This document shows positions 34,880-42,732 of a stretch of 64,000 nt of DNA, piece by piece. How positions within the stretch are numbered: the stretch's first letter is position 1; every line of letters begins with the position of its first letter. A program made the translations under genes and the position numbers. Source of the DNA: Bacteroidia bacterium (GTDB lineage: Bacteria; Bacteroidota; Bacteroidia; NS11-12g; UBA9320); NCBI GenBank assembly GCA_965216465.1, contig CBDCFW010000001.1:128001-192000 (forward strand), read 5' to 3'. The notes under the pieces are model-generated. The model made no database searches, was not told the origin of the DNA, and saw only the letters and a program-made list of their open reading frames with translations.

Positions 34880-36241
34880 ATGGCAAGAATATTAATTGTA
34901 GACGACGAAGAAAGTATCAGAGAAACGCTAAAAGAAATTTTAGACTACGAGGGATACGAAATTGAAGAAGCTCCAGATGGAGAGAAGGCTCTATCGCTAA
35001 TTAAGAAATTTAATTACGATGCTGTTTTGGCTGACATCAAAATGCCTAAGCTTGATGGACTCGAATTGCTTGAAAAAGCAAAAGAAGTAGCACCTGAACT
35101 TCCATTTATTATGATCTCTGGTCATGGTACCATGGAAACAGCGGTAGAAGCAACTAAAAAAGGAGCATTTGACTTTATTAGTAAACCTCCAGATTTAAAT
35201 AAGCTCTTAATCACCGTTCGTAACGCAGTAGATAAAAACAACTTAGTTATTGAGACTAAGGTGTTAAAGCGTAAGATTACCAAAACCCGTCCAATTATTG
35301 GAGATGCTCCAAGCATCAAAAAAATAAAGCAGACCATCGAGAAGGTAGCTCCTACTGATGCGCGTGTAATGATTACTGGAGAAAACGGTACAGGTAAGGA
35401 ACTTGTAGCACGTTGGATTCACGAAAAAAGTAACCGCTCAGACAAGCCTATTATCGAAGTTAACTGTGCCGCGATTCCATCAGAACTTATTGAAAGTGAG
35501 CTTTTTGGACATGAAAAAGGTTCATTTACTTCTGCAGTTAAGCAGAAGCTGGGTAAGTTTGAAAAAGCGAATGGCGGAACGCTCTTCTTAGATGAGATTG
35601 GAGACATGAGTCTTTCTGCTCAAGCCAAAGTTTTGAGAGCGTTACAAGAGAATAAAATTACGCGTGTTGGTGGTGAGAAGGACATTAATGTAGATGTTCG
35701 TGTTATCGCTGCGACCAATAAAGATTTGATGCACGAAATTCAAGAAGGTAACTTCAGAGAAGACCTCTACCATAGAATTTCGGTGATTGTAATTCACGTT
35801 CCTACGTTAAATGAAAGAGTATCTGATATTCCAACGCTTGCAGAAAAATTTATGGAAGAAATCTGTCAAGACAATGGAATAAATAAAAAGCAGATTACTG
35901 CTGGAGCAATGGATGCTCTGAAAAACATTTACTGGAGTGGTAATATTCGCGAGTTGCGTAACATTATTGAACGATTGATCATCTTATGCGACCAGAAAAT
36001 TACAGAGGAAGATGTTCAGTTATATGCCAACAACGGTAAAAAGAAACCAGGTACAATTGATGCTATCAATGAGTTTTCTCGTTTCCAAGACTTCAAAGAC
36101 TATGCTGAGAAAATGTTTATCGATGCCAAATTGAAGAAGAACAATTGGAACGTAGCTAAGACCGCTGCAGAAATCGACATTCAAAGAAGTCACTTGTACA
36201 ATAAGATTGATAAGTTTAGTCTTAAGCGTGACAAAAAATGA
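34880..36241 (+). CDS. Sigma-54-dependent response regulator (NtrC/NtrX-like)
   Basis: Receiver domain (VDDE, DIKMP), GENGTGKE, ESELFGHEKGSFT, C-terminal HTH. ATG at 34880; the longer ORF call overlaps rnpB. Confidence 0.93.
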   Translation: MARILIVDDEESIRETLKEILDYEGYEIEEAPDGEKALSLIKKFNYDAVLADIKMPKLDGLELLEKAKEVAPELPFIMISGHGTMETAVEATKKGAFDFISKPPDLNKLLITVRNAVDKNNLVIETKVLKRKITKTRPIIGDAPSIKKIKQTIEKVAPTDARVMITGENGTGKELVARWIHEKSNRSDKPIIEVNCAAIPSELIESELFGHEKGSFTSAVKQKLGKFEKANGGTLFLDEIGDMSLSAQAKVLRALQENKITRVGGEKDINVDVRVIAATNKDLMHEIQEGNFREDLYHRISVIVIHVPTLNERVSDIPTLAEKFMEEICQDNGINKKQITAGAMDALKNIYWSGNIRELRNIIERLIILCDQKITEEDVQLYANNGKKKPGTIDAINEFSRFQDFKDYAEKMFIDAKLKKNNWNVAKTAAEIDIQRSHLYNKIDKFSLKRDKK

Positions 36242-37185
36242 TAGGCACGGATGTGTCTGTTGCAGCTAAGCTTTTGCAAAAAGGTGAAGTTGTAGCCATT
36301 CCCACCGAAACAGTTTATGGTTTAGGGGCAAATGCTCTAGACCCAAGCGCTGTCACTAAGATTTATCAAACCAAGGAACGTCCTTCGTTCAATCCATTAA
36401 TTCTTCATCTTCCAAATTTAGAAGCAGCAAGGCCTTATATTCAGGATGTTCATCCTATGGCTCAACAATTGGCTGACCGATTTTGGCCAGGCAGCTTGAG
36501 CTTGCTATTTCCAAAAACAGACATGGTTCCTGATATTGTTACTGCTGGATTGCCCAATGTGGTTATACGCGTCCCAAATCATGAATTAACGTTGCAATTA
36601 TTGCAGGAAGTAAAATTTCCGGTCGCAGCACCAAGTGCCAATATATCGAATACCGTTAGTCCAACTTCCGCAGAGCGGGTTCAACAGAACTTAGGTGATA
36701 AGATAGAGTACATTTTAGATGGCGGACCATGTACGGTTGGAGTGGAAAGTACAATCGTTTCCTTTGTTGATGATGAAGTTACGATTTTGCGTGAAGGAGG
36801 AATTAGCAAGGAAGAAATCGAAGCGGAGTTAGGAATTTCGGTATCGTATAAGAAGGCAAAAGAGGTTACTGCACCGGGCCAGCTTAAACGTCACTATGCG
36901 ACTCGAAAGCCGCTTTATGTTGTTGACGACATCGAAGAGGCCATGCTCAGCTTTAGGGATAAGAAGGTTTCGGCCATGTTGTTTGAAACCAAGCAGATTA
37001 AAGCCAATAAGGTATACCTCCTCTCCCACAACTACAATCTATCGGAAATAGCCATCAATTTATTTGAGATGATGAATAAGGCAGACGAAGACAATAGTGA
37101 AATCATCTTAGTAGAACGTATCAAAGAAGAGGGAATTGGAAAGGCTATCGCAGATCGTTTAAGAAGGGCGAGCACTGAGCTCTAA
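36238..37185 (+). CDS. tsaC: L-threonylcarbamoyladenylate synthase (Sua5 type)
   Basis: PTETVYGL, K.RP..NPLI, APSAN, GVEST, APG...HY, DRL.RA. Confidence 0.92.
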   Translation: MIGTDVSVAAKLLQKGEVVAIPTETVYGLGANALDPSAVTKIYQTKERPSFNPLILHLPNLEAARPYIQDVHPMAQQLADRFWPGSLSLLFPKTDMVPDIVTAGLPNVVIRVPNHELTLQLLQEVKFPVAAPSANISNTVSPTSAERVQQNLGDKIEYILDGGPCTVGVESTIVSFVDDEVTILREGGISKEEIEAELGISVSYKKAKEVTAPGQLKRHYATRKPLYVVDDIEEAMLSFRDKKVSAMLFETKQIKANKVYLLSHNYNLSEIAINLFEMMNKADEDNSEIILVERIKEEGIGKAIADRLRRASTEL

Positions 37186-37196
37186 CACACTCTAAA

Positions 37197-37245
37197 CTCA
37201 AACTCTTGCTCAAAACTCTTGCTCAAAACTCTTGCTCACACTCAA
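37197..37245. repeat. Three tandem copies of a 13-bp unit (AAACTCTTGCTCA) ending in the left arm of a 17-bp inverted repeat
   Basis: CTCTTGCT occurs at 37203, 37216 and 37229. Confidence 0.85.
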
Positions 37246-37256
37246 ACCTTAACCCC

Positions 37257-37397
37257 CTAAATATTCCAAATCAGAATTTCATCTGACTCGTTGTAGGAGT
37301 CTTCTGTAGAGGAGTAGTCGTCTGGATTGATGATTTTCATCATGCAAGTGCTTTCAGGATTTTCTGTAGCTTGCTTTATGAGTTCGTAGTATGACAT
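37257..37397 (-). CDS. Unannotated 46-aa acidic small protein MSYYELIKQATENPESTCMMKIINPDDYSSTEDSYNESDEILIWNI
   Basis: Intact ATG-TAG frame translated by hand; TAGCTTTG (-7 box) at 37419-37426 on the same strand. Confidence 0.55.
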   Translation of the reverse strand: MSYYELIKQATENPESTCMMKIINPDDYSSTEDSYNESDEILIWNI

Positions 37398-37567
37398 AGT
37401 GAATTAAAATCGTTGCTTCAAAGCTAGCGAGTTATGAAATGAACTTATACATCATTTTCTACACATAATGTGTATAGAATTGGATAGCGGACGGTTTGAT
37501 GAAGTCTTCTTACTTCGTCGTAATGCCTTAATCAACCAATTTAAGCTCTCTCGAAAAGGACATAGAG

Positions 37568-37584
37568 TTGAGTGTGAGCAAGAG
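37568..37584. repeat. Right arm of a perfect 17-bp inverted repeat (partner 37229-37245)
   Basis: TTGAGTGTGAGCAAGAG is the reverse complement of CTCTTGCTCACACTCAA. Confidence 0.85.
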
Positions 37585-37719
37585 AGTGAGAGTACGAATT
37601 CTACCTATTCAAGGTCTCTTGGAGAGGACCTTGAAGAGTCAAATGCCTACTTATTAAACCTACATGGTAAAATCATTCACCAACCTTTGCTATATTCGAT
37701 TCCTGAACTTCTTTAATAA

Positions 37720-37905
37720 ATGGAAAACCTCTACTTCATCTTCAAAGAAACCACTGCAATATTCATTATTTGGGTAGTTGCAGAGCTTATTTTCATGTAC
37801 AAGGACATTGCTCCAAAACAACGATGGAGGTACCGAACTTGGGTACTGGCTAGTGCAGTTTTTATTGGAGTTGCTGTTTATTTGGTTTGGAGGTCGAATT
37901 TCTAG
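37720..37905 (+). CDS. Small 2-TM membrane protein
   Basis: 61-aa ORF with two hydrophobic helices and a basic loop. Confidence 0.55.
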   Translation: MENLYFIFKETTAIFIIWVVAELIFMYKDIAPKQRWRYRTWVLASAVFIGVAVYLVWRSNF

Positions 37906-37960
37906 GTACCAAGTAATTAAGATCCCTAATGTAGACCTTTGATTAGGATTTCGTTGCATC

Positions 37961-38266
37961 CTAGTAACTCAACAGTATTCCGCAAATGGTGAAAACACCA
38001 AAAGCAACCCAAAACAAGATTGAAAGAAATCTCACATGCTTAGGTTGTATGGCTAAATTTAAAGGATTTAATGCGTACCATTTTGAATAGTGAGTTTTCA
38101 TTAAAAAACCTTCATCCTTAAAATCACTTCTATACAAATAGATATAATGCAAAATATATTTGAGAGCAAACGCACCAAAAGCAGTTAGTCCAGAGTAAAA
38201 TGATATGTCATATATTAAGGGTTGCATCGAATTTTCAATAGAGCAATTATTCACCAAAATAAACAA
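37961..38266 (-). CDS. Small membrane protein (cargo in the repeat array; start uncertain)
   Basis: 101-aa ORF with two hydrophobic segments; a downstream ATG (MQPLIY) is possible. Confidence 0.5.
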   Translation of the reverse strand: MFILVNNCSIENSMQPLIYDISFYSGLTAFGAFALKYILHYIYLYRSDFKDEGFLMKTHYSKWYALNPLNLAIQPKHVRFLSILFWVAFGVFTICGILLSY

Positions 38267-38330
38267 TTTGAATTGAAACCAGCATAGTGCACCTTAAATG
38301 AGCTGAATCAAACAAGTGTACCAATATTTG

Positions 38331-38392
38331 CAGTCAGTGGGAGATTGAGGGCGAATGCAGATGATTCTACCTGCACTTCGCATTATAAGTTG
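38331..38392. repeat. Hairpin array element, copy A (diverged, core apparently inverted)
   Basis: CAGTCAGTGGGAGATTGAGGGCGA-ATGCAGATGATTCTACCTGCA-CTTCGCATTATAAGTTG. Confidence 0.85.
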
Positions 38393-38400
38393 TTTACTAT

Positions 38401-39534
38401 TTATCTAAACTGATCTCTAATTGCAGCAATTGATTTCCCAGAGTTTGAGATTATAAGATACCTTACATCAGACACTATTCTTTTAAACTCCTCGTCATCT
38501 GACAACTCATTTACCGAATCCAAAAAGTCAATTAACTCTATTTCTATGTCTTCTTGATAAAGTATCTGACTATTGTCTTCACTTAAATACTTCTTCAGAA
38601 TGGGAATCGCAATCTTGCTGAGTTCTACTGCTTTCATTCCATTTCTCACACTCAGTCCTTCCTCTTTTATTATTGAGCTCAAATAGTAGTAGTCATTAAT
38701 ATACGACTTGCCAAGTTCAGAAGTTGACAATTCTGCTCTGATATCATAGAAAGTAGACTTGTCAATAATCTTCCCTGACACTTTTTCAGCCTCATTAATG
38801 CCACAAGTTCTTCCATAGCAATCAAAAGTCCCATCTCCATTCGACATGCAGTTCATATCCGGTGCCTCAAAACAAGGGTATTGACAGCCTTCTTTGTCCT
38901 TCTTAGGCTTGTCTGGAACATCAGGAGCTTTTTTAGACTTTAAGTAATTAGCACCTAAAACTTGGTGCAGAAAAACTGCATGATCAGGGACTTCAAATTC
39001 ATAATTACTCCGCAATGAAACTGCAGAAAAGAAGCGTTGATCTAAGTCCATTTGTCTCGCGAAAACTACAAAATCGTTAGTTGAGATTGCGTCAACCTCG
39101 ATTGACTTAAATCGATATGAAAGCTCGTTGCAATCAAATCCATCAACATACAGTCTCCCTTCTTTCAGATAAAAATACAATGCAGCTCTACTGGAATCCA
39201 GATTTAATTTCTCGCTTTTATCAAGTCGATTATTGAAGTATAAGACAATTGAGATTGGAATATTCTCGTCATTCTTCTGTATAAGATTGAACAAGTCCAT
39301 CTTTTGAATAATTGAATCTTGTCCAGTATAGTGAAATGCTAGATGAAAATTATTGTTAGTGTTGCTCTTGTTTGCATAGTACACTTGAAAGGAAATGGCA
39401 GCGAGATCATCACCAAAAAGTGCTGCTTGTTTATCAGGTGAAAACGTGTCGCAAGAAGCACATGTCAATCGATTACTATCCTTACAACTGAAAAGGAGAA
39501 AAAGGGCTAAAAATGCTAATGTTATTTTTTTCAT
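38401..39534 (-). CDS. Lipoprotein with a Cys-rich linker and helical C-terminal domain (cargo)
   Basis: Lipobox LFSC; CQYPC..C..C..C cluster; 377 aa. Confidence 0.75.
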   Translation of the reverse strand: MKKITLAFLALFLLFSCKDSNRLTCASCDTFSPDKQAALFGDDLAAISFQVYYANKSNTNNNFHLAFHYTGQDSIIQKMDLFNLIQKNDENIPISIVLYFNNRLDKSEKLNLDSSRAALYFYLKEGRLYVDGFDCNELSYRFKSIEVDAISTNDFVVFARQMDLDQRFFSAVSLRSNYEFEVPDHAVFLHQVLGANYLKSKKAPDVPDKPKKDKEGCQYPCFEAPDMNCMSNGDGTFDCYGRTCGINEAEKVSGKIIDKSTFYDIRAELSTSELGKSYINDYYYLSSIIKEEGLSVRNGMKAVELSKIAIPILKKYLSEDNSQILYQEDIEIELIDFLDSVNELSDDEEFKRIVSDVRYLIISNSGKSIAAIRDQFR

Positions 39535-39598
39535 GTCTTCAAAATGAAAACAACAAGCTCACACATATTGTAGAAATTCTACTACTTCATTAGTTGTT

Positions 39599-39652
39599 TT
39601 AATAAAAATCTTTAACTCCCTTATATACTCTAAGCTTTTCAAAATCAAACAT
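39599..39652 (-). pseudogene. Truncated 5' stub of the four-helix-bundle gene (MFDFEKLRVYKGVKDFY*)
   Basis: The first 7 residues and the upstream spacer match the intact copies; it stops after 17 codons. Confidence 0.8.
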
Positions 39653-39667
39653 GTATATCAAAATTCA

Positions 39668-39728
39668 CAGTCAGTGCGAGAATGAGGGCGAATGCAGGTA
39701 GAAGCACCCGTGCTTCACACTCTAACTG
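39668..39728. repeat. Hairpin array element, copy B
   Basis: CAGTCAGTGCGAGAATGAGGGCGA-ATGCAGGTAGAAGCACCCGTG-CTTCACACTCTAACTG. Confidence 0.92.
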
Positions 39729-39732
39729 CATT

Positions 39733-40080
39733 CTACTTCTCCAACTTCCGTATTAGAGCATATAACATCTTAGACAGCTCTTCTGCTTTCTGATAGAGTG
39801 TAGAGTACTCTTTTATATTGAGTTTTGATTTATCTTTAAGTATGTCGCAAATAGCAACACATTCAAATACTGAACTTCTAGAAATAACATAGAAATTTCT
39901 TTTATCACGATTCGTAAATCGTCCTGTACCTTCAGCTATGTTTAAAGCGATACTAAGTGAAGCCCGCTTGAGCTGATTGGTAATTACTGAATCTGGTTTA
40001 CAGTTGTCTAATAGTTTCTCAATTTCAAAATGAAATTCTTTTGCTCGCTTATAGACTGTAAGTTTTTCAAAATCAAACAT
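39733..40080 (-). CDS. Four-helix bundle protein (23S rRNA IVS / Avd-like family), copy 1
   Basis: FEKL.VY..A, QL.RAS.SIALNIAEG.GR, F..ISRSS..EC signature; ATG at 40080. Confidence 0.92.
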   Translation of the reverse strand: MFDFEKLTVYKRAKEFHFEIEKLLDNCKPDSVITNQLKRASLSIALNIAEGTGRFTNRDKRNFYVISRSSVFECVAICDILKDKSKLNIKEYSTLYQKAEELSKMLYALIRKLEK

Positions 40081-40095
40081 GCATATCAAAATTCA

Positions 40096-40156
40096 CAGCC
40101 AGTGCGAGAATGAGGGCGAATACGGGTAGAATCACCCGCGCTTCACACTCTAACTG
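40096..40156. repeat. Hairpin array element, copy C
   Basis: CAGCCAGTGCGAGAATGAGGGCGA-ATACGGGTAGAATCACCCGCG-CTTCACACTCTAACTG. Confidence 0.92.
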
Positions 40157-40157
40157 T

Positions 40158-40508
40158 TTACTTCTTCTCCAACTTCCGTATTAGAGCATATAACATCTTA
40201 GACAGCTCTTCTGCTTTCTGATAGAGTGTAGAGTACTCTTTTATATTGAGTTTTGATTTATCTTTAAGTATATCACAAATAGCAACACATTCAAATACTG
40301 AACTTCTAGAAATAACATAGAAATTTCTTTTATCACGATTCGTAAATCGTCCTGTACCTTCAGCTATATTTAAAGCGATACTAAGTGAAGCCCGCTTGAG
40401 CTGATTGGTAATTACTGAATCTGGTTTACAGTTGTCTAATAGTTTCTCAATTTCAAAATGAAATTCTTTTGCACGCCTATAGACTGAAAGCTTTTCAAAA
40501 TCAAACAT
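40158..40508 (-). CDS. Four-helix bundle protein (23S rRNA IVS / Avd-like family), copy 2
   Basis: Near-identical to copy 1 (about 7 substitutions counted by eye, plus one extra terminal Lys). Confidence 0.92.
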   Translation of the reverse strand: MFDFEKLSVYRRAKEFHFEIEKLLDNCKPDSVITNQLKRASLSIALNIAEGTGRFTNRDKRNFYVISRSSVFECVAICDILKDKSKLNIKEYSTLYQKAEELSKMLYALIRKLEKK

Positions 40509-40523
40509 GCATATCAAAATTCA

Positions 40524-40584
40524 CAGTCAGTGCGAGAATGAGGGCGAGTGTGAGTAAGAACACTCACACTTCACACTCTAACTG
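40524..40584. repeat. Hairpin array element, copy D
   Basis: CAGTCAGTGCGAGAATGAGGGCGA-GTGTGAGTAAGAACACTCACA-CTTCACACTCTAACTG. Confidence 0.92.
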
Positions 40585-40587
40585 TTA

Positions 40588-40643
40588 TGGTACCCAGGGT
40601 CGGGCTCCCCAACGTTGCAGTTGGGATAAACTTCTCGCCCGAC
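40588..40643 (-). repeat. Duplicated tRNA-Leu 3' end (T-arm, acceptor strand and CCA) with a palindrome in the T-loop
   Basis: 40590-40607 is identical to 40703-40720 (18 bp). The GTCGGG/CCCGAC stem encloses CCCAAC-N6-GTTGGG. Confidence 0.85.
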
Positions 40644-40666
40644 TTTAGAATTCAAATTTTCGCCAT

Positions 40667-40696
40667 AAAAAAAGCTGACCTAGAAGATCAGCTTTT
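40667..40696 (-). terminator. Intrinsic terminator after tRNA-Leu
   Basis: AAAAGCTGA/TCAGCTTTT stem with a U-tract on the minus strand. Confidence 0.75.
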
Positions 40697-40703
40697 CATT
40701 TTG

Positions 40704-40785
40704 TACCCAGGGTCGGGCTCGAACCGACACGTCTTGCGACATTGGTGTTTGAGACCAACGCGTCTACCAATTCCGCCACCTGGGC
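40704..40785 (-). tRNA. tRNA-Leu (anticodon CAA)
   Basis: GCCCAGG/CCTGGGT acceptor stem, GGAATTGGTAGAC D-loop, TTGGT-CTCAAAC-ACCAA anticodon arm, long variable arm, GGTTCGAGCCC T-arm. Confidence 0.96.
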
Positions 40786-40864
40786 ATGAAAGGACGTTTA
40801 CGTCCTTGAGCATACAGACCTAAGCGTCTGCACCGATTCAAGACCTACAACCAGGTTTCTCAAA

Positions 40865-41395
40865 TCAGGCTGCGAATGTATTTAGACTTTCTCTTATTCG
40901 CAACACATACTTTAACTTTAAGTATGTTTCTTTAACTTTTTCTAAAATTTCTTTTCGAGCTTCACTTCCAACTTCCAACTTATCAGCCTCTCCCGCCCTA
41001 TTCGCTAACTCCAAATTCAATTCTTCTTCCAACTGCCTTACCTCCATCAATACTTCATCTTGCTTCGCAGCATCAGGATCCATTTTTAAATCCATAATAT
41101 CCTCATTGATGTCCATCATCTCCATTAAAAAGCTTTGCGGAATAGCATTCTGTGCCTCTTGAAGCACCTCATTAAGTTTTAGAATGTAATTCACTCTCGA
41201 GCTGAACTTGCTTAACGCCTTGAATGCCGAATTATTGGTACTCGTCGTTTCTAAAGCCTGCTCATACTTCGCTTCATCATCAATAACAAAATCAGGGTGA
41301 TGCTCTTTACTAATCTTAAAGAATAGCTGTTTTAACTCAGCTTCATCCAAGAAGAATTGCTCTTCTATACCATAAAACTGAAAGTAGTTCATCAA
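40865..41395 (-). CDS. hscB: Fe-S co-chaperone HscB
   Basis: NYF, J-domain HPD, FLMEMMDINE. Confidence 0.88.
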   Translation of the reverse strand: MMNYFQFYGIEEQFFLDEAELKQLFFKISKEHHPDFVIDDEAKYEQALETTSTNNSAFKALSKFSSRVNYILKLNEVLQEAQNAIPQSFLMEMMDINEDIMDLKMDPDAAKQDEVLMEVRQLEEELNLELANRAGEADKLEVGSEARKEILEKVKETYLKLKYVLRIRESLNTFAA

Positions 41396-42732
41396 CTAAA
41401 AAACGCGTTTAAGCTATCAATAAACAGTATAAAGCCCATTAAAGCAAAAAGTAGAATCATTCCAACGATTTGGAAGTAGTACATTACTTTCTCAGGCAAT
41501 GGCTTTCTTCTAACCATCTCTATCAATAAGAACAATACGTGTCCTCCATCTAAAGCCGGAATAGGTAACAAGTTCATGAAAGCTAAGACAAATGATAGCA
41601 TTCCTGTAATCTGCCAGAATCGATGCCAGTTCCATTCCGCTCCATAAATGGTAGCAATTGTAATCGGCCCGCTTAATGTTTTGGTTGGATTAAGCTTTCC
41701 TTTAATCATCTCACCAAAAGCTCTAATGTTTAAGTTCAAGGTGTTAATTCCTCTCCTGGTTCCTTCTGGGAACGATTCTAAAAAGCCAAACTTCGTGGTA
41801 ATGGTTTTACCTGCAAATTCAGAAACATCATCCATCAATATTCCAACTCTACCATTGGTATCTAGTTTGTGCTTTATCTCAATTGATTCGTTGTCTCTGA
41901 TTATACCTATAGTTACTTCTTCACCTTTGTGATTTTGAAGCTCATCCTTCATGTTATTGTGAAAAGGAGTAGCAACATCATTAACCGATACAATTTGGTC
42001 GCCTTTTTCAAAGCCAGAACTCTTAGCCTCTTCAGTTTGTGCTTCATATACAATAGACTTAATACGCTTGTCGTATAAGCCACGGCCTTTGCTTTCCATA
42101 ACCTTAGGCTTTATACTATCTGCCAGAATGAAGTCACGAATTTGACCATTATTTTCTACGGTATAAGTTAGATCTTCATCTCCTGAAAAGAAAAGTTCAG
42201 GCTTACTAAATTCACGGTATTTTTCAAGCTTCTCACCGTTCAATGCGATAAGTTTATCTCCTTCTTTGAATCCTGCTTGAACTCCTAATTCGGTAGGAAC
42301 AATTCCATTCACATTAGCTACTTCTGTTGGTAACCATGTATCTCCATAGTGCCATAGTGATAAGGCGAAAATTAATATTCCTAAAAAGAAATTAACCGTT
42401 ACCCCACCAATCATAACAATCAAACGCTGCCATGCTGGCTTGCTTCTAAATTCATAATCTTCAGGTTCTGAAGCCATTTGCTCTTTGTCAAGGCTTTCAT
42501 CTATCATTCCTGAAATTTTAACATAGCCTCCAAGTGGCAACCATCCAATACCCCATTCGGTGTCGTTTACCTTCTTGCTGAAAAGCTTTACTCCCCAAGC
42601 ATCGAAGAAGATGTAGAATTTCTCAACACGTATACCAAAAGTACGTGCTGCGATGTAATGCCCCCATTCATGCAACGATACTAAAATAGCTAACGCTAGT
42701 ATCAGTTGCCCTGCCATGATTAATGTTCCCAT
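41392..42732 (-). CDS. rseP: RIP metalloprotease RseP
   Basis: HEWGH, PLGGYVK, PDZ domains, NLLPIPALDGG. Confidence 0.95.
   Translation of the reverse strand: MGTLIMAGQLILALAILVSLHEWGHYIAARTFGIRVEKFYIFFDAWGVKLFSKKVNDTEWGIGWLPLGGYVKISGMIDESLDKEQMASEPEDYEFRSKPAWQRLIVMIGGVTVNFFLGILIFALSLWHYGDTWLPTEVANVNGIVPTELGVQAGFKEGDKLIALNGEKLEKYREFSKPELFFSGDEDLTYTVENNGQIRDFILADSIKPKVMESKGRGLYDKRIKSIVYEAQTEEAKSSGFEKGDQIVSVNDVATPFHNNMKDELQNHKGEEVTIGIIRDNESIEIKHKLDTNGRVGILMDDVSEFAGKTITTKFGFLESFPEGTRRGINTLNLNIRAFGEMIKGKLNPTKTLSGPITIATIYGAEWNWHRFWQITGMLSFVLAFMNLLPIPALDGGHVLFLLIEMVRRKPLPEKVMYYFQIVGMILLFALMGFILFIDSLNAFFS

Follow-up and report, generated by a model that had tools for sequence, protein, structure and literature searches.

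The DNA downstream of the gene for tRNA-Leu(CAA) in this Bacteroidia bacterium is best explained, with a probability of about 0.55, as a small tandem array in the tRNA trailer of a cassette of the type found in ribosomal RNA intervening sequences (IVS): a gene for a four-helix-bundle (4HB) protein that has been amplified via hairpin repeats and that decays with distance from the tRNA. The window, i.e., the whole stretch of DNA analysed, comprises 64,000 nucleotides. The protein belongs to PF05635, a very large family that is not known to have a function outside diversity-generating retroelements (DGRs) and that is familiar mainly as the open reading frame (ORF) in some 23S rRNA IVS. Such ORF-bearing IVS (with S23p ORFs) occur in Coxiella burnetii, Leptospira, Xanthomonas and Brucella. 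In the searchable literature, subscription journals excluded, no hairpin-flanked 4HB cassettes were found described outside rRNA or beside tRNAs. From the tRNA gene to the gene sua5, the locus has the following features.

40703..40785, minus strand: tRNA-Leu(CAA) (ARAGORN; Rfam tRNA, 55 bits)
40657..40686, minus strand: terminator-like hairpin plus T-run directly after the tRNA, recognised by eye and not flagged by a consensus terminator scan
40588..40636, minus strand: tRNA-like 3′ fragment (T-stem, 31-nt insert with its own small hairpin, acceptor 3′ strand, CCA)
40524..40584, minus strand: hairpin element copy 4 (H4), folding energy −24.4 kcal/mol, z −3.9, consensus fold
40158..40508, minus strand: 4HB gene copy 2 (PF05635), intact, Pfam E 6.7e-25, PDB 2GSC E 2.6e-4
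40096..40156, minus strand: hairpin element copy 3 (H3), by repeat alignment and folding
39733..40080, minus strand: 4HB gene copy 1 (PF05635), intact, Pfam E 2.4e-25
39668..39728, minus strand: hairpin element copy 2 (H2), by repeat alignment and folding
39599..39652, minus strand: 17-codon stub of a third 4HB gene, 43/52 nt identical to the gene start
38401..39534, minus strand: putative lipoprotein of 377 amino acids, between cassette remnants, read as an accessory gene
38331..38392, minus strand: hairpin element copy 1 (H1), the most diverged, by repeat alignment and folding
38306..38330, minus strand: possible fourth 4HB remnant (spacer and first codons), a weak match of 17/23 nt
37961..38266, minus strand: ORF after H1 for a small putative membrane protein, from the ORF list, no Pfam match
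37560..37600, no strand assigned: complementary arm (GAGTGTGAGCAAGAGAGTGAGAG), 17-nt perfect inverted repeat
37186..37250, no strand assigned: arm of CTCTTGCTCAAAA repeats beside the sua5 stop codon (inverted repeats I1 and I2)

The array, all of which lies downstream of tRNA-Leu(CAA), is built as had been described from the letters alone: the hairpin element, 61–62 nt long, is present in four copies with start-to-start distances of 1337, 428 and 428, so that the last three are 428 bp apart. In a 128-nt register, the identities of the element copies are 60, 100, 89 and 83%. Each copy follows the preceding stop codon or CCA after a gap of 8, 4, 1 and 3 nt (copies 1 to 4), within the 1–8 nt noted before, and a spacer of 15 nt leads from the element to the ATG of the 4HB gene. 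The two 428-bp tandem units differ at 16 of 428 positions, i.e., they are 96% identical. The 4HB gene is indeed intact twice: the two ORFs (39733–40089 and 40158–40517, minus strand) both score above the Pfam cut-off for PF05635, the true start likely being the ATG that gives MFDFEKL, at 40080 and 40508. Seven of 115 codons differ between the gene copies, five of them synonymously and two conservatively. The protein of gene copy 2 matches PDB entry 2GSC, a structure of five chains. The 17-codon stub held up as well, since none of 1000 shuffles reached the score of its alignment with the gene start. The fourth, barely recognisable stub that had been placed at 38306–38314 fared less well: the stretch around it (TTGTTTGAT, about 38306–38330) may be a remnant in so far as it continues the alignment of element copy 1, whereas taken by itself it is not significant (111/1000 shuffles score equally). 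Further candidate 4HB remnants, between the stub and the lipoprotein gene and 3′ of the lipoprotein gene, were not established (23/1000 and 493/1000 shuffles, respectively).

The possibility that the 428-bp duplication arose during assembly was examined in Logan contigs. Gene 1, element 3 and gene 2 are bridged by contigs of runs X1, X2 and X4 (40069–40193; 39736–40193), runs that are possibly the assembly's own source, and the 363-nt contig into which the two genes collapsed is covered about twice as deeply as the contig next to it (4.93 vs 2.8; 4.91 vs 2.5). As far as contigs can tell, therefore, the tandem is genuine. The two-copy form alone was seen in these contigs, with neither alternative joints nor circles, low-depth contigs being able to miss rare forms.

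Each element comprises a purine-rich arm, a small and variable inner hairpin (7–8 bp in H4), and a pyrimidine-rich arm. In three of the four copies, the fold is stronger on the coding strand (−21.2, −22.2 and −24.4 vs −17.2, −19.4 and −21.6 kcal/mol), because of G–U pairs. The RNAalifold consensus has 21 pairs, three of which, in the inner stem, show compensatory double changes. A sigma-70 promoter scan, using a consensus unsuited to this phylum, remained at shuffle level (12 vs 11.6). At the DNA level the arms around both genes pair poorly, with an ungapped inverted score of 10, which is within the control range; the arms are local hairpins, unlike the classic arrangement of a gene in the loop of one stem.

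The gene hscB lies upstream of tRNA-Leu(CAA) on the same strand, and the order hscB–tRNA-Leu is kept in all 16 of 16 genus loci. Rfam matches at E ≤ 1 over 36000–42000 were to tRNA only, with none to rRNA. The terminator-like hairpin stands between the tRNA and the array, which counts against simple read-through from the tRNA. Beyond it is the tRNA-like fragment, of which positions 40590–40607 are an exact 18-nt copy of the 3′ end of tRNA-Leu(CAA), 95 nt from the tRNA. A module of GAGAAGTTTATCC, a hairpin and the acceptor end is also found in the relatives G008 and G068, with a different inner hairpin in each; since the same fragment has been conserved in both, it must be old. The CCA of the fragment as a mark of an RNA intermediate is unsupported, the G008 fragment having AAA in that place. 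When 1111 nt of the array were searched as DNA against 40 relatives, the fragment region of G008 was the sole match, and the conserved 24-nt flank, as an exact pattern, had no match in metagenome contigs.

Homologous hairpins, with or without a 4HB gene, occupy the tRNA-Leu(CAA) trailer across several genera of the family. Of the 53 trailers examined, four (G000, G069, G081, G044) have a 4HB gene or stub no more than 1.5 kb from tRNA-Leu(CAA), and G044 has about five tandem copies of a related GAG-type hairpin. Related GAG-type hairpins without the gene are present in G008, G076 (three in tandem), G067, G068 and G074. These gene-less hairpins bear on the proposal that the hairpin is an autoregulatory leader, i.e., a cis-acting 5′ RNA structure that is bound by the pentameric Avd-like 4HB protein and controls the translation or stability of its own message, with the array as a by-product. 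The coding strand favours the structure, and conservation within the unit is highest from the 3′ arm through the 15-nt spacer into the first codons, both as a leader would have it; moreover, a relative of the family, Avd, acts together with DGR RNA and has a four-helix-bundle pentamer fold (PMC10053308). However, hairpins of the same family persist where there is no 4HB gene to regulate, and arm sequences vary widely between close homologues, so that such a leader is quite unlikely to be the explanation.

To see how the 4HB genes are placed elsewhere, 80 loci with relatives of the array protein were surveyed (553 kb), these being best matches to one protein and not a random sample of the family. 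Inverted arms with a score of at least 14 flank 31 of 77 4HB genes vs 8 of 331 control ORFs (Mann–Whitney U, p 8.7e-14), and flanking direct repeats were found for 14/77 vs 7/334. Enrichment was measured by ungapped repeat scores, because G+C and length confounded the RNAduplex energy of 200-nt flanks. Local hairpins, considered by themselves, were no commoner beside 4HB genes than beside control ORFs (p 0.54 and 0.35). Within the same family, gene-enclosing arms were seen in seven of the eight cluster loci inspected.

Seven of the 77 4HB genes in this set lie at most 287 nt downstream of a same-strand tRNA; conversely, of the 12 tRNAs in the 553 kb, nine have a 4HB gene no more than 355 nt away, and seven of these nine precede that gene on its own strand. 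Three of the neighbouring tRNAs are again tRNA-Leu(CAA), each set among different genes (L022, L025, L026). Repeats of hairpin plus 4HB gene stand beside a tRNA or tRNA fragment at three other Bacteroidota loci: in L020, the 5′ half of tRNA-Leu(CAA) is fused to an array with a period of 436 bp; in L024, the order is tRNA-Gln, hairpin, 4HB gene, hairpin, and then a 4HB pseudogene; and in L025, it is tRNA, two hairpins, 4HB gene, hairpin. Hairpin and tRNA are not directly adjacent in L022, L026 and G081. An apparent tRNA 5′ half in G063 proved to be an assembly gap, and two 4HB loci of G007 suspected of being rRNA gave no Rfam match. The recurrence of these layouts bears out hairpin plus gene as a unit, and the tRNA neighbours, together with the tRNA-Leu(CAA) trailers of the family, bear out its tie to tRNA.

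A rival account is that a gene was duplicated in tandem together with its terminator or leader region and then decayed, as an ordinary event in a variable intergenic spot and without any element-like character, the hairpin being no more than the local terminator or 5′ leader. Occurrence of the element here only had been named in advance as pointing that way; within the genome this is so, the element being confined to the locus, whereas the hairpin-plus-4HB layout recurs in other lineages. The 96% identity of the intact units is also in keeping with a duplication, recombination between 61-nt direct repeats requires no special machinery, and in L020, L023, L024, L025, G044 and G069 the last part of the hairpin is a T-rich run, resembling that of an intrinsic terminator. 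Yet the element here has no T-run and the terminator scan found none in it; the layout is found again among unrelated genes and in other orders; arms near-identical over 23–34 nt are shared with a Saccharicrinis cassette; and flanking repeats are enriched some 10-fold or more around 4HB genes. Taken together, these make an ordinary duplication rather unlikely, and the IVS-type cassette array is preferred.

The original prediction likened the locus to an integron: hairpin plus gene would be a recombination cassette entering next to the tRNA, with unrelated genes captured site-specifically at the hairpins. An integron has an IntI-type tyrosine recombinase with attI adjoining the array, and attC sites have the cores RYYYAAC and GTTRRRY. 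Like integron cassette arrays, the locus has small co-oriented ORFs, each followed within 1–8 nt by an imperfect hairpin; hairpin plus stub precedes two unrelated genes; and the youngest-looking copies are closest to the tRNA, decay increasing with distance here, as noted before, and likewise in L024. Unlike such arrays, it has neither attC cores (the element ends in ...CTCTAACTG on the plus strand and starts with CAGTTAGAG on the minus strand, neither of which fits) nor a nearby integrase, as had been rightly noted: there is no recombinase on the 383-kb contig, and the four PF00589 (tyrosine recombinase) genes are all on contigs C4, C5 and C6. The trans-acting enzyme that might have filled this role did not emerge either, the genome containing no Y1 transposase (PF01797) and no reverse transcriptase (PF00078). 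The element is absent from the rest of the genome, the contigs show no circles or alternative joints, and nothing shows that new units join the array on the tRNA side. Related genomes have 4HB cassettes within a fatty-acid oxidation operon, between housekeeping genes that clearly are not cargo. Thus, the attractive analogy with integrons, including the accumulation of cargo and the amplification at the tRNA end, is corrected as unsupported, and an integron-like platform is very improbable.

Two other kinds of mobile element are similar in part. Tandem, short and imperfect intergenic palindromes are also possible for REP/BIME sequences with RAYT; the copies here are at one locus instead of dispersed, and the genome has no Y1/RAYT transposase. 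Over 18 nt, the tRNA 3′ end is repeated directly, as in tRNA-targeted integrative elements and their scars; however, this repeat lies between tRNA and array rather than bounding the array, and there is no integrase.

A better reading of the unrelated genes is that they are ordinary accessory genes in a variable gap, from tRNA-Leu to sua5, where remnants of cassettes lie among them. This gap is 3517 nt here vs less than 200 nt in seven of the nine genus loci that hold sua5, which are taken to show the empty site. The 377-amino-acid lipoprotein has no Pfam match, and weak relatives of it (E 4e-7 to 2e-6) occur in 3 of 65 other genomes of the family. On the sua5 side, the CTCTTGCTCAAAA arm is identical at 32 of 34 nt to arms of the Saccharicrinis 4HB cassette L021, and the two arms enclose 322 nt with a 46-amino-acid ORF. 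A decayed 4HB gene within this loop was sought, and none was recognisable (best tblastn E 0.07).

The closest known counterparts are the IVS of 23S rRNA. Each 4HB gene stands between two direct copies of the 61-nt hairpin, which would place complementary arms on both sides of it much as in an rRNA IVS, the pairing itself being local; the best reading is that this unit is the same element as that known inside 23S rRNA. The Coxiella IVS has 428 nt, complementary borders and an S23p ORF, and is excised by RNase III (PMC4990558); the unit here has the same protein family, a length of 428 bp, a stable-RNA transcription unit as its putative residence, a sporadic distribution, and a reductive decay of the ORF. 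Unlike the rRNA IVS, it is in a tRNA trailer with no rRNA match in 36000–42000, its arms are local hairpins between genes instead of one stem around the gene, and it is tandemly repeated. With Avd, it shares a homologous four-helix-bundle pentamer fold (the PDB 2GSC match; PMC10053308); unlike Avd, it is found in a genome, 100% complete, that has no reverse transcriptase.

In the proposed mechanism, the hairpin repeats on either side of the gene would have recombined unequally or slipped, and the array would have grown in this way. Copies far from the tRNA, dispensable by then, would have lost most of the gene by deletion, leaving first a hairpin with a stub and then gene-less hairpins. On the coding-strand RNA, the hairpins would be duplexes at which the RNA is processed or insulated, RNase III being the probable enzyme, as for the rRNA IVS; in this way the cassette could ride a stable-RNA transcription unit without harm. 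The lipoprotein and membrane protein genes would be residents of the variable gap and not captured cargo.

More tentatively, IVS-type 4HB cassettes may be widespread selfish elements that hitch-hike on stable-RNA units, i.e., on rRNA helices and tRNA trailers. With the hairpin just after the acceptor end, tRNA 3′-end processing would make the 5′ end of the cassette RNA; where a terminator intervened (G000, G008, G068), the tRNA-like T-arm/acceptor fragment may have been kept as a processing signal; and the hairpin repeats may have two roles, in RNA as sites of RNase III cleavage or insulation, and in recombination as the substrate by which the unit is amplified, deleted and perhaps spread. This locus and its relatives place the gene-plus-arms unit behind tRNA genes as well, in tandem arrays that decay to gene-less hairpins persisting across genera. 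One testable picture would thereby take in the IVS of rRNA, intergenic hairpin repeats that lack an explanation, and a major family of “unknown” proteins.

The array lies between tRNA-Leu(CAA) and sua5 and comprises, in minus-strand order:

40703-40785, minus strand: tRNA-Leu(CAA), preceded by hscB
after the tRNA, minus strand: terminator-like hairpin with a T-run
40588-40636, minus strand: tRNA-like fragment, including 18 nt identical to the tRNA 3′ end
after the fragment, minus strand: H4, 4HB gene 2, H3, 4HB gene 1 and H2, in that order
after H2, minus strand: 17-codon stub
between the stub and H1, minus strand: gene for a 377-aa putative lipoprotein
after the lipoprotein gene, minus strand: H1, then the possible last remnant of a 4HB gene start
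after H1 and the possible remnant, minus strand: small membrane-protein ORF
37560-37600 and 37186-37250, beyond the membrane-protein ORF: complementary repeat arms, a pair enclosing 322 nt
after the repeat arms, last in order: stop codon of sua5, a convergent gene

As originally predicted, there are four hairpin elements (H1–H4; spacing 1337, 428 and 428 bp) and two intact four-helix-bundle (4HB) genes, both clear PF05635 members in Pfam; the only solved structure matched by the sequences of the two proteins is 2GSC (five chains). Sixteen positions distinguish the two 428-bp units; their genes differ in 7 of 115 codons, 5 of them silently. The 17-codon stub is real, matching the 4HB gene start at 43 of 52 nt, a score reached by 0 of 1000 shuffles; a proposed fourth stub is reduced to the possible remnant after H1, for which 111 of 1000 shuffles scored as well, so that it is not significant alone. 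There is no obvious sign that the 428-bp duplication arose in assembly, since Logan contigs (from runs that may be the assembly's own source) bridge the H3 junction and the collapsed gene contig is covered at roughly twice the depth; contigs covering the array contain no alternative joints. PF05635 is otherwise represented in this genome by a single weak relative on contig C4 that lacks arms (G000:C4:84583-84933). This third 4HB-like ORF has diverged strongly and scores below the Pfam cut-off; at its start it overlaps the stop codon of the gene before it, it is followed by a permease-like gene, and it may be a domesticated copy.

Each element copy consists of an outer stem, a middle stem and an inner hairpin of 7–8 bp. 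The folds on the minus strand, which is the coding strand, have z-scores of −2.6 to −3.9 and, in three of the four copies, are better than the plus-strand folds by 2.8–4.0 kcal/mol, because G–U pairs turn into A–C mismatches on the other strand. RNAalifold finds 21 pairs in the four copies; three of these, each within the inner stem, show compensatory double changes. Coming from four related copies, this covariation is no more than suggestive. The element matches no Rfam family.

In the 4HB clade of the window, the arms stand together as a complete hairpin instead of one on either side of the gene, and two direct copies of this hairpin flank the gene, a layout also found in the closest homologues (49–59% identity). 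The hairpin flanks the gene on both sides in a Saccharicrinis locus (L021) and a Cyclobacteriaceae locus (L025; tRNA, hairpin, hairpin, gene, hairpin), a Crocinitomicaceae locus (L020) has a tandem array of 436-bp period reaching the contig end, and L024 has tRNA-Gln, hairpin, intact gene, hairpin and a pseudogene with in-frame stops. Unequal recombination between the 61-nt direct repeats would generate gene-less “solo” hairpins as well as the 428-bp duplication; such repeats on either side of a gene would be sufficient substrate, and the inner-stem likeness of H3 to H2 is compatible with this. Decay increases with distance from the tRNA in the window array and in L024, two cases that fit equally new units entering at the tRNA end and selection keeping the proximal copy only, and cannot distinguish between them.

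The original prediction was of an integron-like array gathering cargo genes. A real, amplifiable, tRNA-anchored unit is upheld, but not the integron analogy, as there is no capture platform: the window's contig carries no recombinase, the element has no attC cores and is confined to this locus in a 100%-complete genome of 3.23 Mb, and the search for a trans-acting enzyme found neither a Y1 transposase nor an RT in that genome.

The tRNA-Leu–sua5 site is a variable gap. The order hscB then tRNA-Leu is kept in 16 of 16 genus loci; of the nine with sua5, seven have a gap below 200 nt, and the remaining two, with gaps of 767 and 1280 nt, contain other small accessory genes but no 4HB. In the window, the gap is 3517 nt, with a G+C of 0.33–0.38, slightly low versus 0.384 for the genome. 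Among 65 other family genomes, three have relatives of the lipoprotein, all weak. The sua5-side arm (37203-37239) is identical at 32 of 34 positions to the Saccharicrinis cassette arms, and the first 23 nt of a solo hairpin in G008 are, compared by eye, the same as those of L021. Between the GAGCAAGAG-type arms, the 322-nt loop has a 46-aa acidic ORF (37257-37397, minus strand) as its sole same-strand frame; this ORF matches no family and is not similar to 4HB. CACACTC/AAACTC hexamer runs, with letters as in the pyrimidine arms, also occur in this genome (C1:120641-120670, C1:121362-121395, C6:426540-426565 and C6:427312-427385) immediately following the signal-peptide-like starts in secreted proteins, where they would encode His/Thr/Gln-rich linkers.

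For a wider view, 77 4HB genes were compared with 331–334 other ORFs from the same 80 public loci, which were those best matching the 4HB protein in many phyla and not a random draw of the family. Inverted repeats across the gene scored at least 14 in 31/77 4HB genes versus 8/331 control ORFs (MWU p 8.7e-14), and at least 12 in 42/77 versus 14/331; direct repeats stood on both sides in 14/77 versus 7/334. Local hairpins as such were not enriched around 4HB genes relative to control ORFs, because control genes have terminators.

The link between 4HB cassettes and tRNA genes extends beyond the window genome. Among the 12 tRNA genes in the 80 loci (553 kb), nine are at most 355 nt from a 4HB gene, and seven of these nine are upstream on the same strand, where about a quarter of one is expected by length alone. 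tRNA-Leu(CAA) accounts for three of the seven, each time in a different gene neighbourhood (L022, L025, L026); in L020, the 5′ half of tRNA-Leu(CAA) and the array meet at a 7-nt microhomology. In the taxonomic family, 53 tRNA-Leu(CAA) trailers were examined, 17 in the genus and 36 elsewhere (one of the 36 just 156 nt long; G063 was left out for an assembly gap). Four have a 4HB gene or stub within 1.5 kb (G000, G069, G081, G044): in G069, a hairpin and truncated gene are immediately 3′ of the tRNA, and G081 has two cassettes in the trailer. GAG-rich hairpins opening CAG[A/T]G follow the tRNA without a 4HB gene in G008, G067, G068 and G074, and such hairpins form three tandem copies in G076 and about five in G044; a G054 hairpin is built on another repeat unit. 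At ten junctions, no more than 10 nt separate the start of the hairpin from a tRNA acceptor end, either a real one (G044, G067, G069, G074, G076, L024, L025) or a tRNA-like fragment (G000, G008, G068); in L022, L026 and G081, a terminator and other sequence intervene. The module of terminator, fragment and hairpin is common to two genera (G000/G008 and G068), so the fragment is old, which rules it out as a fresh integration scar.

Other tRNA pieces were observed. Upstream of the real tRNA, L014 (G001; 130-300) and L019 (G008; 115-160) contain 5′ pieces of tRNA-Leu(CAA), two in tandem and one, respectively, with a TCCCGATAAnTATCGGGA palindrome in place of the D-arm region; a Fluviicola MAG (L022 3870-3890) has this palindrome as well, with the tRNA terminator on one side of it and the 4HB hairpin on the other. 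In the window genome, the 220 nt downstream of tRNA-Asp (C6:383088-383162) contain two terminators with a partial copy of the 3′ half of this tRNA between them; among 51 tRNAs, tRNA-Asp and tRNA-Leu(CAA) alone have a 3′-tail copy within 600 nt.

PF05635 genes are present in 60 of 66 genomes of the family, and in 7 of the 8 cluster loci inspected the gene is enclosed by arms made up of short tandem repeats. These cassettes are co-oriented and placed in gaps of housekeeping operons, including the acyl-CoA dehydrogenase/thiolase/FadB (fatty-acid oxidation) operon in five genomes of three genera (L100, L101, L102, L104, L109); thus, a gene between two 4HB cassettes is not thereby “cargo”. A single 284-aa open frame in G078 (L107 2239-3093) has PF05635 and OsmC domains, and could be a fusion or cassette read-through into its neighbour. 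Identical 4HB loci by an HMG-CoA reductase gene (L114 and L115; G007:C1 near 12 kb and 2861 kb) are near both ends of a one-contig genome, probably through assembly overlap of a circular chromosome and not true duplication.

The closest described thing to these cassettes is the ORF-bearing intervening sequence (IVS) of 23S rRNA, which in Coxiella is 428 nt long, has complementary borders and an S23p ORF, and is excised by RNase III (PMC4990558). The literature covered, outside subscription journals, yielded no description of such 4HB cassettes outside rRNA. From the rRNA IVS precedent and the strand asymmetry, we infer how the hairpin may act and how cassettes may reach new sites. The best-supported reading, with a probability slightly above even (roughly 0.55), is that the array is an IVS-type 4HB cassette in a tRNA trailer, tandemly amplified via its own hairpin repeats and decaying distally.
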